From: a bacterium
Lineage (GTDB): Bacteria; Patescibacteriota; Minisyncoccia; UBA6257; GWB1-50-10
NCBI GenBank assembly: GCA_021791395.1
Contig: JAJYWR010000005.1
Coordinates: 21,259-85,258 of the forward strand
DNA length: 64,000 nucleotides
Direction of reading: 5' to 3'
In this document: positions 3,982 through 60,835 of the stretch, piece after piece
Layout: every line of letters starts with the position of its first letter
Position numbering within the stretch: the stretch's first letter is position 1
The notes under the pieces: model-generated
Told to the model about the DNA's origin: nothing
The model's database searches: none
The model's input: only the letters and a program-made list of their open reading frames with translations
Program-made: the position numbers and the translations under genes

Positions 3982-4393
3982 AGGTTAGTTTTGTTTTGAC
4001 GGCTTTCTTGAAATTATTCACGGCAAAAATGAACGAGACGAAAAGGATGAGCGCAAGGGAGAGAGCGCCGATCGTGGGAAGCACCGGGAGCGACTCCGCG
4101 ATCGACGCGAAGTAATCGCCGAAGTTCGCCACGACGATAGTGAAGTCTGAGAAGACGAGTGAGACGAGTTGCGGCGTTCCCGTCGCCGAAAACTGGGCGG
4201 CTGCCGCCTGGATCAGGAGATACAGCCCCGCAATCGAACCGACGGCAAGAGTGCCGAAAACTGCGGCTCTCATTTCCGCGAGCTTTTTTCTTTTTTTTTC
4301 AAGGGTGAAAATGATCCGGTCAGCAAGACCAGGAACGACTCGATAGTCCAAATCGGCAAGTATTTTTCCTAGGCGATCGACATACCTTTCCAT
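3962..4393 (-). CDS. hypothetical multi-pass membrane protein, positional candidate anti-sigma factor
   Basis: It lies directly downstream of the ECF sigma gene and has 2-3 predicted TM helices. There is no recognisable zinc anti-sigma motif. Confidence 0.4.
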   Translation of the reverse strand: MERYVDRLGKILADLDYRVVPGLADRIIFTLEKKRKKLAEMRAAVFGTLAVGSIAGLYLLIQAAAAQFSATGTPQLVSLVFSDFTIVVANFGDYFASIAESLPVLPTIGALSLALILFVSFIFAVNNFKKAVKTKLTYAPRHS

Positions 4394-4414: not shown

Positions 4415-4984
4415 CTAGAGTTTCGGTGCATTTTCTGCCTCCAGCTTCGTTTTGAGCGTCGCAAGCGCCCGGCGGTGCCTGCTCCTCACGGTATTTTCCG
4501 AAGCACCTGTCACTTCCGCGATTTCCCGAAAGTTCAAATCGTCCTGGTAGTGGAGAATGAGGACCGACCGATGCGCAGGCGAAAGCTCCTGCAGGATTTT
4601 TTCCACCTCTTCCTTCGTCTCTTTGCGTTCCAGAGCGTCGTTCATGTTTTCGCCTTCATCCTTGATATCCATGATGGCATTTTCGCCGTCGTCGGTCTCA
4701 AGGTCGGAAAATTTCAATTCTTTCCGTTTGCGGAGATAATCAATAACTGCGTTCCGCGCGATTTGGAAAATCCAAACCTTGAACTTCCGCTTGGTGTCGA
4801 ACTTCTTCAAATGCTTCCAGACCCGGAAGAAGACATCTTGCGTCAGATCTTCCGCTTTTCCTTCGTCCTTAATGTATTGATGGATGAAATTGAAAATATG
4901 GTCGGCATACCGCTTCACAAGCACGTCGAAGAGATGCTCTTCCCCCTGAAGGCAGAGTTCCACCAGTTTTTCGTCCGACCCCAT
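4415..4984 (-). CDS. ECF-type RNA polymerase sigma-70 family factor
   Basis: The region 2 pattern is DLTQDVFFRVWKHL...WIFQIARNAVIDYLRKR. The region 4 HTH is LSPAHRSVLILHYQDDLNFREIAEVTGASENTVRSRHRRA. Confidence 0.9.
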   Translation of the reverse strand: MGSDEKLVELCLQGEEHLFDVLVKRYADHIFNFIHQYIKDEGKAEDLTQDVFFRVWKHLKKFDTKRKFKVWIFQIARNAVIDYLRKRKELKFSDLETDDGENAIMDIKDEGENMNDALERKETKEEVEKILQELSPAHRSVLILHYQDDLNFREIAEVTGASENTVRSRHRRALATLKTKLEAENAPKL

Positions 4985-4992
4985 GGAGGAGA

Positions 4993-5853
4993 TTATCGCA
5001 CGAATCGGAGATAAATACCCGACGGAACGATCCGGTTCGATGCTTGCTCACGGATCGCGATCTCACCGAATTCCGCGGACTTCGCTTCGGGGAATGATCC
5101 TTCGATCGCTTGAAGGAACGACTGCGGCGAGTACCCGGCGGCATACCCATTCAAGAGGAAGAATGATCCCGGTTTTTTCGAAAAGAGTTTCTGAAGGACG
5201 TCGAGAAGTTTCTGCATGTCCTCTTCGATCCGCCACACCTCATTTTCCGGCCCCCGGCCGAACGCCGGCGGATCGAGGATGATGCCTTCGTAGGCATGTC
5301 CGCGCCGCACTTCCCGCTCGGCGAACTTCAGAGCATCGTCGAGAAGCACGCGCATCGCGCCTTCCGGAACGCCGGAGAGTTTCGCGTTCTCTTTTGCCCA
5401 CGTATTCGATTGTTTCGATGCATCGATGTGCGTGACGTTCGCACCGTTTTTTGCCGCAACGATCGATGCGATGCCGGTATATCCGAAGAGATTCAGGACC
5501 TGCGGATCTTTGAGTCCGGCAACGCCCTCGGCAATCCATTCCCAATTCACCGCTTGCTCGGGAAAAATCCCGGTGTGCTTAAACGATGTAAGGCGCGCGG
5601 TGAATCGGACGTCCCGCCACTTCATTTCCCACGATTCCGGAATACCCTTGTTTTTCCACGCTCCCTTCCCACCGTTCCAGCTGAATTCCGCCTGCGCCTT
5701 TTTCCAGTCCGCTTCGCGGAGAAGTTTCCAGATCGCCTGCGTTTCCGGCCGTATCACGATATATTTGCCGTACCGCTCGAGTTTTTTATTGTCACCGGAA
5801 TCCAGGAGTTCGTAATCACTCCACGGCTCAGCGATGAGGTCAATGTTTTTCAT
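4993..5853 (-). CDS. class I SAM-dependent (rRNA) methyltransferase, RlmI/RlmK-like
   Basis: The ORF is trimmed to MKNIDLIAEPW, whose ATG overlaps the upstream stop (ATGA). The SAM motif is VLNLFGYTGIASIVAA and the catalytic motif is ILDPPAFGRG. Confidence 0.8.
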   Translation of the reverse strand: MKNIDLIAEPWSDYELLDSGDNKKLERYGKYIVIRPETQAIWKLLREADWKKAQAEFSWNGGKGAWKNKGIPESWEMKWRDVRFTARLTSFKHTGIFPEQAVNWEWIAEGVAGLKDPQVLNLFGYTGIASIVAAKNGANVTHIDASKQSNTWAKENAKLSGVPEGAMRVLLDDALKFAEREVRRGHAYEGIILDPPAFGRGPENEVWRIEEDMQKLLDVLQKLFSKKPGSFFLLNGYAAGYSPQSFLQAIEGSFPEAKSAEFGEIAIREQASNRIVPSGIYLRFVR

Positions 5854-20891: not shown

Positions 20892-21019
20892 TATCCAACT
20901 ATTCTAAACGAAAAGAACATTCCAAGAAAGACCAATAGGGGTAGCGAACCGAGCACCTCCGCGAAGGCTAAGACTTGGGCGTCGCCCCGGAGACAGCCTG
21001 AGAGGAGGCACTCGGCGAG

Positions 21020-29391: not shown

Positions 29392-29454
29392 GTACCTTAT
29401 AGTATCTTAAAAATTTTCCGCTTTCCAGATTCCTAAACCTTCTTCATTTCCCGG

Positions 29455-29563
29455 ATCAAACCGTCTCGCAGGATGAGCGGGCATGGTTTTTGCGGAGCGA
29501 AAGAGCAAATCCGAGAGCGAGCGGCCAAACCACGCCGGGGTTCGGCATAGCGTGTTTGAGAAG
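29455..29563. repeat. GC-rich intergenic repeat, family 1 (short copy)
   Basis: Its left arm matches 58080..58112 at 28/33 positions. Its right arm aligns to part of 58267..58327 and contains a hairpin with compensatory changes. Confidence 0.8.
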
Positions 29564-29579
29564 AAAAATAAAGAAAGTC

Positions 29580-39944: not shown

Positions 39945-39957
39945 TGGTAATTATAAG

Positions 39958-40097
39958 CGAAAAGCCGCATTACTTCTCAGCACCGGGCGTTCATTGGCTC
40001 CAGCGGCCGATGCCGCCCTACGCCCTCGGCCCACAATCCCTTTCGGGGAACTAAACCCGCTCGCTTCCGGAAGCTGCTTCGAAATAATGCGGCTTTC
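39958..40097. repeat. GC-rich long-hairpin intergenic repeat, family 2
   Basis: Terminal inverted repeats are AAGCCGCATTA and TAATGCGGCTT. The core at 39978..40029 matches 58137..58188 at about 43/52 positions. Confidence 0.8.
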
Positions 40098-40119
40098 TCT
40101 TCCCTACTCCTATTTCTCC

Positions 40120-43511: not shown

Positions 43512-44150
43512 TTAAATATTTGTCAATATATCCTCTTTTGTAAATTCACCGACTCGCGTACGTACGAGTTCCGCGACATACCCGCCGACACCCAAAGTAT
43601 CCCCCACGTCCCGGGCAAGCGATCGGACGTATACGCCGGGGCCGGTTACAACTTTCAATTCCAGATACGGCGGATTATATGAAAGGATTTTGATCGAAAA
43701 AATTTTCACGCGGCGCGAATTCATCTCGGGTATTTTTCCGCGGCGCGCGAGCTTATATGCCGGCACGCCTTTTATTTTCAGGGCACTGTATACCGGCGGT
43801 ACTTGGTCGACGACGCCGACGAACGACGGTAAAATTTTTTCAATGCGCTCGATATCCGGAAAACGTTCCCGCTCGACAATTTCTTTTTCCCCTTCTTCAT
43901 CGCCCGTCGTGCTCCGCACGCCGAGCCTTATCTTTACGAGATATTCTTTTTCTTCCCCTGCCGCCATATTGAGTCGCTTCGTTGCTGCGCGCCCAACGCC
44001 GACGACGAGGATGCCCGACGCCAATGGATCGAGTGTCCCCGCGTGCCCGATCTTTCTTGTCCCCATTTTCTTTTTCAATCGATTGAGGAACTCAGCCGAT
44101 GTCGGTCCCTTCGGTTTCCACGCGGCGAATATTTCACCTCCCTCATTCAT
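43512..44150 (-). CDS. truB: tRNA pseudouridine(55) synthase
   Basis: The catalytic motif is GHAGTLDPLASGILVVGVG. Confidence 0.9.
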   Translation of the reverse strand: MNEGGEIFAAWKPKGPTSAEFLNRLKKKMGTRKIGHAGTLDPLASGILVVGVGRAATKRLNMAAGEEKEYLVKIRLGVRSTTGDEEGEKEIVERERFPDIERIEKILPSFVGVVDQVPPVYSALKIKGVPAYKLARRGKIPEMNSRRVKIFSIKILSYNPPYLELKVVTGPGVYVRSLARDVGDTLGVGGYVAELVRTRVGEFTKEDILTNI

Positions 44151-44153
44151 GTG

Positions 44154-44519
44154 TTAAATATTTTCGTAATGTTTCACGTCGAACCCATTTCCCCAATTCT
44201 TCGTGAGCGCAATGACGTCGAGTCGCCATCCTTTTTTGTCGTCGATTAATTCTTCATGGGCTCCCGCATATACTCGCGCCGCTCTCGTAAATTTCTCAAT
44301 CTTTGATTTTGTCATCTGCTCTTCCGCTTCGATGCCGGGACCGACAACCGTTTTTACTTCGACGAAGACCAGTACCTTGTCCGGCGCGACGGCAACGATA
44401 TCGAGTTCCCCCCATTTTTTTCTGTTATTTCTTTCAATGATACGCCAACCGATCTTTTGCAAATATCTCGAAGCAAAATTTTCTCCCCGTCTTCCCAATT
44501 CGGATCTTCCATCCCTCAT
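44154..44519 (-). CDS. YraN-family (UPF0102) predicted endonuclease
   Basis: It carries GENFASRYLQKIGWRIIERN...GELDIVA...VFVEVK. The ORF is trimmed to MRDGRSELG. Confidence 0.8.
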   Translation of the reverse strand: MRDGRSELGRRGENFASRYLQKIGWRIIERNNRKKWGELDIVAVAPDKVLVFVEVKTVVGPGIEAEEQMTKSKIEKFTRAARVYAGAHEELIDDKKGWRLDVIALTKNWGNGFDVKHYENI

Positions 44520-53732: not shown

Positions 53733-53743
53733 GGGGAAGCCTG

Positions 53744-53816
53744 TCGGCACGGTAGGACTCGAACCTACGATCCACGAGGTATAAGCTCGTTGCATTAGCC
53801 GCTATGCTACGTGCCG
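53744..53816 (-). tRNA. tRNA with anticodon UAU (reads AUA; predicted tRNA-Ile)
   Basis: Hand-folded: acceptor CGGCACG/CGTGCCG, D arm GCAT-AGCGGCTA-ATGC, anticodon arm ACGAG-CTTATAC-CTCGT, T arm GTAGG-TTCGAGT-CCTAC, discriminator A. Confidence 0.85.
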
Positions 53817-58048: not shown

Positions 58049-58079
58049 AATTTTGAACGCTGATGATTTCCACTCTCGT

Positions 58080-58327
58080 ATCAAACCATCTCGGAGACCG
58101 AGCGGGCATGGTGGGAAGGAAAACAGCACCATCCTCTCGGCACCGAGTGTTCCTTGGCTCCAGCGGCCAAGGCCGCTCTGCGCTCTCGCTCTGGTTTCTG
58201 CCAAGAGCAGACCAAGTAAACCAGAGCTCCGAGAGCTGCCGTTCGGACAGTACTGTTTTCCTTCCCGAGTGAGGTTGAGAGCGAGCGCGAATTCCTCGCC
58301 GGGGAATTCGATAGCGTGTTTGAAGAG
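58080..58327. repeat. composite intergenic repeat: a family 1 element interrupted by a family 2 long-hairpin element (58113..58266)
   Basis: The outer arms (58080..58112 and 58267..58327) match 29455..29563. The inner element has perfect 14-bp terminal inverted repeats (GGGAAGGAAAACAG/CTGTTTTCCTTCCC) and a core homologous to 39978..40029. Confidence 0.8.
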
Positions 58328-58393
58328 AGGGCGGAAATCGTCAGCTCATTTGATTCTTGGTTCGTAATCGCCGATAATGAAGAGGCTTATATT

Positions 58394-60835
58394 ATGGAAG
58401 AACAGAGAGAGCAGGGAAAAATAGAAGAAAAAGAAATAACCGCTGAACTTTCGGAAAGCTATTTGGACTACGCGATGTCCGTCATTGTCTCGCGCGCCCT
58501 CCCGGATGTTCGGGACGGCCTAAAGCCAGTGCAACGGAGAATTTTGTGGGCGATGTGGGATACGGGACTCACCCACAGCGCGAAATTCAAGAAATCCGCG
58601 AACGTCGTGGGAGAAGTACTCGGCAAATATCATCCGCATGGCGATATGGCGGTTTACGATGCCTTGGCCCGCATGGCCCAGGACTTTTCGCTCCGATATC
58701 CCCTGATCGACGGGCAGGGAAACTGGGGGTCCGTCGACGGCGACAGTCCGGCCGCCATGCGGTACACCGAAGCGCGGCTTTCGAGGATCGCCGAAGAAAT
58801 GCTCATCGACATCGAGAAAGAAACGGTCAATTGGATTCCCAATTACGACTCGACGCGTGAAGAACCTCAATTCCTTCCCGCCAAACTCCCGAACTTACTT
58901 TTGAACGGCACAGTCGGCATCGCTGTCGGCATGGCCACATCCATTCCGCCCCATAACCTCGGGGAAGTGGCGGACGCGGTCGCTCACCTCGCAAAAAATC
59001 CTGACGCAACGGTAAAAGATCTCATGCAATTCATCCAAGGGCCCGATTTTCCGACGGGCGGTCTTGTATATGGTAAGAAATCGCTCGAAGAAGCGTACTC
59101 AACCGGCAAGGGCTCCATTACGATGCGCGCAAAAGCCGACATTGAAGAGCGAAAGAGCGGTAGTTTTCAAATCGTCATCACGGAAATCCCGTACCAAGTC
59201 AACAAAGCCGACCTCATCACGAAGATCGCGGAACTCGTCCAAGAAAAGAAAGTCGAGGGCATCAAGGATGTCCGCGACGAATCGGACCGCGAAGGTCTTC
59301 GGATCGCAATCGATCTCAAGACTGACGCGAATCCGCAAAAAATCTTGAATCAACTCTTCGAATACACCGAGCTCCAGAAAAATTTCTATTACAATATGCT
59401 CGCCTTGGTCGACGGCATCCAACCGCAAGTCCTTTCCCTGAAAGACGTCCTCTCACAATACCTTGAACATCGGAAAGTCATCATTCGCCGGCGAACCGAA
59501 TTCGACCTCAAGAAAGCCGAAGAACGGGCGCATATCCTAGAGGGATTGGTAACCGCGCTCGACGTCATCGACAAAATCATCGCGACCATCAAGAAATCGA
59601 AAGACAAGGAAACCGCGAAGGCAAACCTGATGAAGAATTTCAAACTCTCCGCGCTCCAAGCTGATGCGATTCTCGAAATGAAATTGCAATCCTTGGCCGC
59701 CCTCGAGCGGATTAAATTGGAGGACGAATTGAAGGAAAAGAAGAAAATGATCGCGGAGTTTAAGCTTATCCTAAAGGAACCGAAACGAATCCTTGCGATC
59801 ATCGAAGGGGATCTCGAGTATTTGAAAAAGACGTTCGATAATCCCCGAAAAACGAAAGTCGTTGCCGGCGGCCTCAAGGAATTCAACGAAGAGGATTTGA
59901 TACCGGAAGGGGATTCGATTATCGCAATTTCCGAAGACGGTTACATTAAACGGATGCCGCCCGACACGTTCCGCGCTCAAAAGCGCGGAGGAAAGGGATT
60001 GATCGGCGCAGAGCTCAAGGAGGAAGATAAGATCTCACAAATCATTTATGCTTCGACGCACGACAATATTCTCTTCTTTACCAACAAGGGGCGGGCATTC
60101 CAAACGAAGGCGTACGAAATACCCGAAGCGTCACGCACTTCGAAAGGAAAATCAATCTACAACTTCCTCGAGGTACCGGTAACGGAAAAGGTGAGCGCCG
60201 TCATTTCATATCCCAAGGATACGAAAGAGGGGTATCTCGTCATGATCACGAGAGGCGGCATCGTGAAAAAAACTCCACTCGAGGATTTTGAAAATGTCCG
60301 ACGGACCGGCATTATCGCCATCAAGCTTTCTCCCGATGACGCGCTTCTTTGGGTCAAACTTTCCGGGGGCAGCGATGAAGTAATCCTCGCGACAACAAGA
60401 GGCCAAGCCATTCGATTTAAAGAAAAAGATGTGCGAGAAATGGGACGAACCGCGGGAGGAGTGAAGGGCATCTCCCTTAAAAAGAATGATGTGGTTTCCG
60501 GAGCCGACATCGTGCCCACGAAGTCAGTCGGAAACTCGCGCCTCCTTGTTGTTATGGCGAACGGCTTCGGAAAGCAAACAAACCTTAAAGAATATAAAAT
60601 ACAAAGGAGAGGCGGCTCGGGGATCAAGACGGCAAACATCACCGACAAAACGGGAACCGTCATCGGCGCTCACGTCGTAGGAGATGAAATCACGGAACTG
60701 ATTGCTTTTTCCTCGAAGGGCCAAGCCATTAAGATACCCCTGAAAGACGTGCGAGTTCTCGGGAGAGCGACCCAAGGTGTTAAAATTATGAATGTAGATA
60801 AAGGAGATACTTTGGTCGGCATTGTTGCCTTATGA
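58394..60835 (+). CDS. gyrA: DNA gyrase subunit A
   Basis: It carries [11 protein letters not shown], and [10 protein letters not shown] containing the catalytic Tyr. The ORF 58316.. is trimmed to MEEQREQGK because the extension overlaps the repeat element. Confidence 0.97.

Follow-up and report, generated by a model that had tools for sequence, protein, structure and literature searches.

Nested and inverted Y-shaped hairpin elements upstream of gyrA and at further intergenic loci of a Patescibacteriota lineage probably represent mobile or unstable DNA

In the window analysed here, a 64,000-nucleotide stretch of a Patescibacteriota genome (contig JAJYWR010000005.1), the spacer upstream of gyrA was shown to harbour a composite repeat, in which a hairpin element of one type (family 2) is nested inside an element of another type (family 1). 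With a probability of roughly 0.6, these elements represent a lineage-restricted superfamily of small, non-coding, Y-shaped hairpin elements that behave as non-autonomous mobile or unstable DNA, comparable to repetitive extragenic palindromic (REP) sequences and REPINs, enterobacterial repetitive intergenic consensus (ERIC) sequences and miniature inverted-repeat transposable elements (MITEs). Such elements were observed to have been gained, lost, nested and flipped between close relatives, and, most strikingly, two separate loci each show an in-place inversion between sister lineages. The elements have a length of 110-155 nt and lack a conserved reading frame, and all copies are located just past a stop codon and ahead of the promoter of the next gene. 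The DNA examined comprised ~73 kb of the window's genome and ~150 kb of close relatives, the latter designated here by L-numbers.

The composite lies downstream of the preceding gene's stop codon and upstream of the predicted gyrA promoter, and consists of the following parts:

58061-58077, plus strand: left arm (TGATGATTTCCACTCTC) of the outermost imperfect inverted repeat, complementary to 58328-58343 at 13 of 16 positions and unchanged in the inverted copies of L082, L083 and L085
58078-58326, plus strand: block of 249 nt made up of family 1 and the nested family 2, inverted as a whole in the sister lineage (L083 1211-1459, reverse complement)
58078-58112, plus strand: first part of family 1 (ATCAAACC, TCTCG, GAGCGGGCATGGT), matching 29449-29487
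58113-58266, plus strand: nested family 2 element, with the perfect 14-bp inverted repeat as part of its long basal stem; the family 1 copy of L087 lacks this insert
58134-58243, plus strand: three-way-junction core of family 2, as defined by consensus fold and covariation
58138-58142 with 58237-58241 (helix P2), 58152-58172 (P3 hairpin, loop TCCAGCG) and 58182-58236 (P4, variable apex), plus strand: helices of the family 2 core
58267-58326, plus strand: second part of family 1, matching 29513-29564
58288-58310: hallmark hairpin of family 1 in the gyrA copy, minus-strand reading cgaattcc-CCGGCGA-ggaattcg
58327-58343, plus strand: right arm of the outermost inverted repeat (GAGGGCGGAAATCGTCA)

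The original prediction, made from the window alone, had aligned the outer arms with a compact copy elsewhere in the window and the inner core with the element at 39958-40097, and both alignments were reproduced. The left arm of family 1 (58074-58112) matches 29449-29487 at 82% of 39 nt (E 5e-5), the right arm (58277-58328) matches 29513-29564 at 78% of 54 nt (E 2e-5), and the inner core matches 39960-40028 at 78% of 69 nt (E 3e-10 in this within-window comparison). Likewise, the predicted 154-nt inner element reads as described, being enclosed by a perfect 14-bp inverted repeat, GGGAAGGAAAACAG (58113-58126) and CTGTTTTCCTTCCC (58253-58266). The arms of the outer element were thus correctly recognised, but its end points were not, since an outermost imperfect inverted repeat of 16/17 bp (58061-58077 and 58327-58343) closes the hairpin and lengthens the element. 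Apart from tRNAs, no other similarities were detected among the 26 spacers of the window. The composite and the loci at 29455 and 39958 are all intergenic, and the RNA fold z-scores of 58070-58335 and 39950-40105 were -5.2 and -4.0, respectively. The 154-nt element and GAGTGAGGTT of the gyrA copy correspond to 25 nt (TTTTGCGGAGCGAAAGAGCAAATCC) in the compact copy, and the replacement is therefore not a clean cut-and-paste event.

Relatives of the gyrA locus were found via the fast-evolving protein that is encoded upstream, and their spacers were shown to differ in content. In L002 and L003 (GyrA 85-87% identical), the spacer is ~45 bp long and empty. L087 through to L089 (upstream protein 76% identical) carry the outer, family 1 element alone, at the same place and in the same orientation, while in L090 (upstream protein 58% identical) the start of family 1 is followed by the end of the contig; the first part of family 1 is accordingly kept at this site in both L087 and L090. 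The window's own lineage (L091-L093) has a spacer identical to that of the window, and L082, L083 and L085, derived from three samples (upstream protein 86% identical), possess the full composite in inverted form. The predicted nesting of family 2 in family 1 is borne out by L087, which has family 1 alone at gyrA, and by the compact copy at 29455, which lacks the insert. The proposed search for empty sites in related strains revealed presence/absence differences at orthologous sites for both families, empty sites included.

In the sister lineage represented by L083, the 249-nt interior is inverted between the outermost arms. Positions 58078-58326 are the reverse complement of L083 1211-1459, with 91.6% identity and no indels, and the flanks of the two are collinear, with gyrA being 91.0% and the spacers 92-97% identical. 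The outermost repeat arms keep their position while the interior flips; in the alignment with L087 this outermost repeat has a different sequence and is still able to pair. Matching length, boundaries and divergence indicate an inversion in place and not a second insertion, and independent re-insertion was rejected on the basis of the identical boundaries and length and of a divergence equal to that of the flanks. Orientation was found to be uniform within each lineage (three plus three independent assemblies). As it is fixed per lineage and a sequence difference of ~8% separates the two forms, the flip is probably old rather than ongoing.

These observations bear on two other explanations. 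A programmed invertible switch (inverton), in which a site-specific recombinase would flip the segment so as to regulate gyrA or the upstream operon, is in keeping with a segment that is bounded by inverted repeats and occurs in both orientations at gyrA, and with a second locus that behaves alike. Such a switch is nevertheless considered highly improbable: no promoter-like site was found inside the segment, the promoter-like site of gyrA lies outside it and is unaffected, and the two orientations were seen between lineages only, with one orientation per lineage in the three plus three assemblies. Moreover, no invertase or recombinase domain was detected in the scanned ORFs of the window, nine of which matched no family, or in the domain lists of the gyrA neighbourhood. 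Chance similarity, local duplication or an assembly artefact might be suspected from the presence of only two copies per family in the window and from the short-read metagenomic origin of the contigs. This reading is already refuted by the comparative data, as the within-window E values range from 1e-5 to 1e-10, copies were recovered at five loci from at least four lineages, for which samples and assemblers were independent, and covariation is far above that of controls. In addition, the imperfect 16-bp repeat is much shorter than the assembly k-mer given in the contig identifiers (k141) and therefore could not have caused a mis-join.

Loci other than gyrA were identified in relatives via homologues of MurD and of the DUF11-domain protein. 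In the window, these correspond to the following sites:

39955-40101, plus strand: stand-alone family 2 element between the genes for an H+-pyrophosphatase and murD, core at 39974-40081, P3 hairpin at 39992-40012
44148-44156, minus strand: empty truB site, with 3 nt between the UPF0102 stop and the truB start; L100 has a ~155-nt family 2 element here
20892-21019, minus strand: spacer between an NTP-transferase gene and leuS, with an unrelated ~70-nt hairpin that is not matched by the family 2 covariance model (R2)
29438-29577, minus strand: compact family 1 element between a DUF11-domain gene and a class II aminoacyl-tRNA synthetase gene, core at 29455-29562, hallmark hairpin at 29524-29546

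The murD site provides the second case of inversion. Here, the element of the sister lineage (L100/L104) has the opposite orientation relative to the genes, compared with the window; the two elements align at ~79% over 154 nt in the inverted sense only, and the flanking genes are 92% and 83% identical. The basal stem differs in sequence and still pairs, being ACCATGTTA/TAACATGGT in L100/L104 versus GCCGCATTA/TAATGCGGC in the window. At the same site, L096-L098 were found to possess only a terminator-like hairpin, GAAACGCCGCTTT-CTA-AAGCGGCGTTTC, the stem and flanks of which resemble the base of the window element. Two flips at two shared loci between the same pair of lineages suggest a high rate or a helper activity.

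Presence/absence differences were also observed at the truB and leuS sites. The L100 copy at truB is flanked by TTTGACAC and TTTAAAAC, compared with TTTAACAC at the empty site of the window, which suggests an imperfect 8-bp target duplication. At leuS, L104 and L105 contain a family 2 element, unlike the window. The more distant relative L005 (GyrA 65% identical) carries a family 2 copy with the same loop and a perfect basal stem of 27 bp; apart from this copy, none was detected by blastn and the covariance model in ~1.2 Mb of gyrA loci from 80 other species. Scans of viral contigs with both families returned zero matches, and a blastn search of a phage collection also gave no match.

At the site between the DUF11-domain and aminoacyl-tRNA synthetase genes (window 29392-29579), a mosaic of 230-330 nt replaces the compact family 1 element in L104 (11795-12123), L106 (8947-9275) and L099 (10499-10776). 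Its outermost stem is the same (CTTTCTTYATTTTTCTCCTCAA) and its interior is different (CTCAAGAGGGAATGGCAAC ... GTTGCCATTACTTTTGAG), with one piece resembling the 3' arm of the nested family 2 copy. At this site, L096 has only a fragment similar to the 5' arm of the nested family 2 copy. The corresponding site of the sister lineages may formerly have held a composite.

To describe the structure of the elements, the family 2 copies were compared and a consensus was derived, which takes the form of a three-way junction with a closing helix (CGGCA/UGCCG), a hairpin arm and an arm based on GCUCUCG/CGAGAGC with a variable apex. The hairpin arm ends in a 7-8-bp hairpin with the loop UCCRGCG. Across nine family 2 copies, 95.5% of the cells are paired and double changes were observed in 13 of the 25 pairs, compared with 4.2 in shuffled alignments (0 of 500 reaching 13) and at most 4 in slid controls. 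Six versions of the P3 stem exist (CCTTGGC, CCTTGAC, CATTGGC, CTCCGCT, CACTTGC and CTTTCC), with the loop TCCRGCG and the junction bases being fixed throughout, and the family 2 covariance model scores 116 bits on the core of the gyrA copy (58134-58243). Family 1 forms a long hairpin with compensatory changes in 16 of 42 pairs, and the stem of its hallmark hairpin at 58288-58310 is compensated in the compact copy (29524-29546) and in L087. Element ends differ between copies (GGGAAGGAAAACAG, AAGCGAAAAGCCGC, AAAAAACCATG, CCCTGTTTTT, GGAAGGGAGATTG and GGCGGCGGACAG), with pairing alone being kept. Judged from these substitution patterns, the structure itself is under selection.

Covariation also altered the internal pairings proposed from the single gyrA copy. 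The pairing CTCTCGG/CCGAGAG (58134-58140 and 58229-58235) was abandoned, as covariation supports other pairs, namely CGGCA/TGCCG (58138-58142 and 58237-58241) and GCTCTCG/CGAGAGC (58182-58188 and 58230-58236). The pairing GCTCTGGTTT/AAACCAGAGC does form in the single-sequence fold of the gyrA copy alone, but the covariation tests left this region unpaired, and in the other family 2 copies this arm region has a wholly different sequence.

Strong covariation with a conserved loop and junction, retained in a relative with 65% GyrA identity, would also be expected if the elements were independent small structured RNA genes, or the RNA parts of an RNA-guided or RNA-protein system, with their own promoter and a loop that contacts a protein. 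Consistent with such genes, the same element strand folds better in all seven of the family 2 copies compared: the strand opposite to the modelled one is favoured as RNA by 2-16 kcal/mol, at about five independent loci and independently of the direction of neighbouring genes. This strand bias may be due to mismatches in the basal stem's internal loop, which would be of the purine-purine instead of the pyrimidine-pyrimidine type, and exceptions of the G-U and A-C type, counted in the stems as a test for the strand of function, were about equally frequent. No sigma-70-like promoter was found inside any copy and no protein gene recurs beside the copies. Only tRNAs reached the Rfam 15 gathering score in the window, and a search of three loci on both strands with E values up to 10 returned nothing credible. 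Gain and loss between very close lineages, together with nesting, are furthermore unlike the behaviour of single-copy RNA genes, and the RNA gene interpretation is thus regarded as distinctly unlikely.

A number of specific identities were rejected. Coding of a small peptide was ruled out, as copies differ in length by non-multiples of three and their substitutions are of the compensatory, not the synonymous, type. A hammerhead or other self-cleaving ribozyme was dismissed on account of mismatching junction strands and the lack of an Rfam match, and signal recognition particle RNA, 6S RNA and tmRNA on account of the latter and of the multiple, polymorphic copies. Integron attC sites do not apply, as the ends are unlike RYYYAAC/GTTRRRY and the flanking genes are housekeeping genes, while template or variable repeats of diversity-generating retroelements are contradicted by differences between copies that are not adenine-specific.

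The structural comparison further indicated that families 1 and 2, described as two repeat families in the original prediction, are not independent, as the minus strand of family 1 has the three-way-junction layout of family 2 and its CCRGCG-loop hairpin. With filters off, the best non-self match of model R2 in the window is the compact family 1 element on the opposite strand (29455-29562). It scores 15.2 bits, with E values of 0.07 over 64 kb and 2e-4 over the spacer, and its minus strand aligns with the family 2 model end to end. In this alignment, CAAAC/GUUUG replaces the closing helix, a CCGGCG(U)-loop hairpin takes the place of P3, UCUCG/CGAGA that of the third helix, and a variable stretch corresponds to the apex of P4. 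Within the window's spacers, CCRGCG-loop hairpins with a stem of at least 7 bp are confined to the four elements, where the family 2 copies carry them on the plus strand and the family 1 copies on the minus strand. A and G alternate in the loop of either type (CCAGCGA in L082, CCGGCGA in the window). A single superfamily is therefore moderately supported. Its unit consists of a basal stem of free sequence, a short closing helix, a CCRGCG-loop hairpin of 7-8 bp flanked by conserved junction bases, and a second arm with a UCUCG/CGAGA base and a variable apex. Given the shared layout and CCRGCG-loop hairpin, the gyrA composite can be described as two related units nested head-to-head, with the insert at the variable apex.

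Cis-acting hairpins of benefit to the host, which may be terminators, stabilisers of mRNA 3' ends or operon insulators, represent a rather unlikely alternative. In this case, the hairpins would be inherited vertically and resized by local duplication or deletion, with a stem that works either way. The location of every copy between a stop codon and the next promoter agrees with such a role, as do the T-runs that follow the basal stem at leuS in L104 (TTTTTTATTATT), at murD in L100 (TTTTTCTT) and at murD in the window (CTTTTCGCTT). The murD position of L096 moreover has a canonical terminator-like hairpin with a homologous stem, and the stem forms a hairpin on both strands, so that inversion would be tolerable. 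However, a terminator would have no need for a three-way junction of 110 nt in which the loop is invariant and the junction bases are conserved, and the same core at unrelated loci points to spread rather than to a local origin at each site. The elements are also dispensable in relatives or in the window itself (a gyrA spacer of 45 bp and a truB spacer of 3 nt), T-runs are absent from the gyrA composite, the 29455 copy and the L005 copy, and a terminator scan reported none for the full elements. Some copies do sit on or replace terminator-type hairpins with the T-tract kept; termination or protection of mRNA ends is therefore a plausible side effect, but not the reason for the existence of the elements.

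Among known systems, the elements most closely resemble REP sequences and REPINs. REPINs are hairpins with frequent compensatory changes that insert into or beside one another and leave palindromic remnants upon excision (PMC3116915, PMC3337134). Similar to these sequences, which are mobilised by RAYT proteins, the elements described here are extragenic, non-coding and ~100-150 nt in length, form long single-strand hairpins, keep short motifs while their stems drift with compensatory changes, and are found inserted into or next to each other. Central excision in REPINs leaves plain palindromes, and the mobilising gene is located elsewhere and need not be nearby (PMC3116915, PMC3337134). In contrast to a REPIN, the unit here contains one hallmark hairpin and a non-palindromic three-way-junction core instead of two complementary inverted REPs; self-comparison revealed inverted repeats only in the basal-stem arms, with no self-complementarity of the core. 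Two hallmark hairpins of opposite orientation are present in the gyrA composite, with stems that are unlike each other (CCTTGGC versus CGAATTCC). Unlike in REPs, a GTAG-type motif is absent and the copy number appears low, and no RAYT/Y1 transposase domain was found in gene lists covering ~150 kb from the clade.

With classical MITEs, which derive by deletion from insertion sequences encoding a DDE transposase, the elements share their small size, non-coding nature and dispersed occurrence, as well as filled and empty sites at gyrA, truB, leuS and murD, but the ends of the elements vary in sequence between copies and no autonomous partner was found among the window ORFs scanned. The MITE-like mobility envisaged in the original prediction is consequently upheld with regard to nesting, presence/absence and empty sites, but not with regard to conserved terminal repeats; the elements do not qualify as classical MITEs, since the pairing of these repeats is all that is conserved and at most one site shows a clear target duplication. 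ERIC/IRU, Correia/NEMIS, BOX and RUP-type MITEs are small intergenic imperfect palindromes that are present or absent at orthologous sites of close relatives and occur in either orientation. Internal insertions or a modular structure are found in some of these families, and they are probably read through into mRNAs; their terminal inverted repeats are conserved between copies, usually with a defined target duplication such as TA. In contrast, only the pairing of the ends is kept in the elements described here, a duplication is arguable at one site, and sequence similarity to these families is lacking.

Two further systems resemble the elements with respect to inversion. Recombination or quasipalindrome template switching mediated by inverted repeats flips a segment while the arms stay, without a dedicated recombinase, as is known from plasmids and chromosomes of Escherichia coli. 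The same pattern applies to 58078-58326, although the arms are short and imperfect here (16-17 bp, 13 of 16 positions complementary) and the event took place at two loci between the same two lineages. Like the elements described here, the T-shaped terminal hairpins of parvoviruses, including adeno-associated virus (AAV), are Y- or T-shaped three-way-junction DNA hairpins of ~145 nt with GAGC/GCTC-rich stems that exist in two inverted configurations, termed flip and flop in the viruses. The sequence GAGAGCGAGCGCG at 58280-58292 recalls the parvovirus/AAV Rep-binding GAGC repeats, a resemblance that we take to be an analogy. Unlike these viral hairpins, the elements here are chromosomal and internal rather than telomeric, and no Rep/HUH gene was seen.

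Taken together, the data fit a history in which the elements are mobile or unstable DNA. The outer, family 1 unit was located, in reverse orientation, between the upstream stop codon and the gyrA promoter, where it is found alone in L087. A family 2 unit would then have entered the variable apex of this outer unit head-to-head; the nested arrangement is directly visible, and insertion rather than loss is presumed as its origin. In the sister lineage, the whole 249-nt interior was turned around between the outermost arms, most likely by recombination or replication template-switching across the inverted-repeat stem, as may be expected from the known behaviour of inverted repeats. The selection that acts on structure would most likely be explained by recognition of the single-stranded hairpin form by a trans-acting enzyme that is encoded elsewhere in the genome.

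Several points weigh against the elements being mobile DNA of a single superfamily. No mobilising enzyme was found in the DNA examined, the terminal repeats differ in sequence from copy to copy, and a target duplication is arguable at the truB site alone, where it is imperfect (6 of 8 positions agree between its two copies), with none being evident at the gyrA nest, murD or 29455. On the lineages compared, a single gain explains the gyrA nest as parsimoniously as a single loss, and the plain hairpin of L096 at murD may be either a pre-insertion target or an excision remnant, as described for REPINs (PMC3337134). Copy number amounts to two family 1 and two family 2 elements in the ~73 kb examined, and a metagenome scan with a pattern of the 5' half of family 1 yielded only two chance matches in high-G+C coding DNA. 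Finally, the homology between the two families depends on one 15-bit model match and the shared loop motif, and the shorter or interrupted family 1 copies of L087 and L083 miss the threshold of E <=1 with the model.

As a more specific and speculative proposal, which we regard as unlikely, the CCRGCG-loop hairpin and its junction might constitute the recognition site of a putative hairpin-specific enzyme (of the HUH/Y1 type or another single-strand DNA recombinase). Such an enzyme would insert units into hairpin apices, i.e. terminator loops or the variable arm of another unit, and would flip them, in which case the elements would represent a chromosomal flip/flop element of an undescribed kind.

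According to GyrA, the window belongs to Patescibacteria and groups with metagenome-assembled genomes of a Paceibacteria-like kind. The flanking genes of the elements are of a housekeeping nature, and encode a small membrane protein and GyrA at the composite, a DUF11-domain protein and a class II aminoacyl-tRNA synthetase at the compact family 1 copy, and an H+-pyrophosphatase and MurD at the stand-alone family 2 copy. In agreement with the predicted absence of a transposase from the window, no transposase or recombinase domain was revealed in those of its ORFs that were scanned, nine of which matched no family, or in domain lists for the genes at 48-64 kb. The adjoining 8.9 kb to the left of the window (L101) contain no family 1 or family 2 copy, and their gene list is without a transposase domain. 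The start of gyrA is preceded by one further feature:

58350-58378, plus strand: promoter-like site TTGATT-17-GATAAT for gyrA, kept in L083 and L087

The public gyrA call starts at the GTG at 58316 (839 aa), inside the repeat and upstream of this site. As anticipated, conserved GyrA instead begins at the ATG at 58394, with the GTG start extending into the right arm: relatives begin gyrA at the equivalent ATG (813 aa), which is also the start called in the inverted-element lineage, and the promoter-like site is in agreement. The GTG start is an artefact that arises because the frame of the element is open, and for annotation this means that the public call is 26 codons too long and runs into the element. 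Since the promoter-like site is downstream of the element, the latter lies outside the gyrA leader. A riboswitch or leader in the gyrA 5' untranslated region was excluded on the same grounds, and also because orientation varies among loci and lineages.

Other structured insertions were noted in the same clade. In L087 (3703-3806; window 60832-60835), a different hairpin element of 102 nt separates the gyrA stop from the following gene start; it has terminal repeats ATCCCGTGAGAAATAAAC and GTTTATTTCTAACGGGAT and is flanked by a duplicated ATGA(A). The two genes of the window overlap at the same ATGA (60832-60835), so that a target duplication and the corresponding clean empty site are both apparent. 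This points to activity of further hairpin insertion families in the clade. L082 (2977-3181; window 55679/55680) carries a 204-nt insertion that separates the ftsH start from the stop of an S1-domain gene, where the window has no spacer; the inserted sequence has no relation to that of family 1 or family 2. In L086 (1660-2135), a strongly structured tRNA-gene spacer of ~480 nt contains extra sequence between tRNA-like pieces that is absent from the window. In L100, long hairpin-packed spacers with a repeated GTACAAAACATGCGATCGC motif (4050-4375 and 4769-5027) flank an extra NUDIX gene, which is also absent from the window.

To the left of the window, at a distance of ~0.7-9.6 kb (L101 12472-20696), genes for ParB-N, a D12-class DNA methyltransferase, RadC, AbiEii and several HTH/S24 repressor-like proteins form a block that resembles an integrated mobile or defence island, without copies of the hairpin elements. 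Within the window, ARAGORN calls a tRNA-Ile with anticodon TAT (UAU) at 53743-53816; in most bacteria, AUA is read by a modified CAU tRNA.

Genomes of Patescibacteria (candidate phyla radiation) are tiny and tightly packed, and are usually described as repeat-poor. A literature search found no report of REP-, REPIN- or MITE-like elements in this phylum. The elements described here constitute a structured repeat superfamily that turns over between lineages less than 10% apart in DNA, with self-nesting and in-place inversion, and when strains are compared by means of metagenome-assembled genomes, element-bearing spacers are to be regarded as hotspots of structural change. With regard to the biology of mobile elements, the conserved three-way junction, fixed loop and free stems point to structure-specific recognition, and the model built here, when run over whole genomes, could reveal the enzyme responsible. 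If the proposal of a hairpin-specific enzyme were true, the elements would represent a flip/flop mobile element in a phylum thought to be almost repeat-free.

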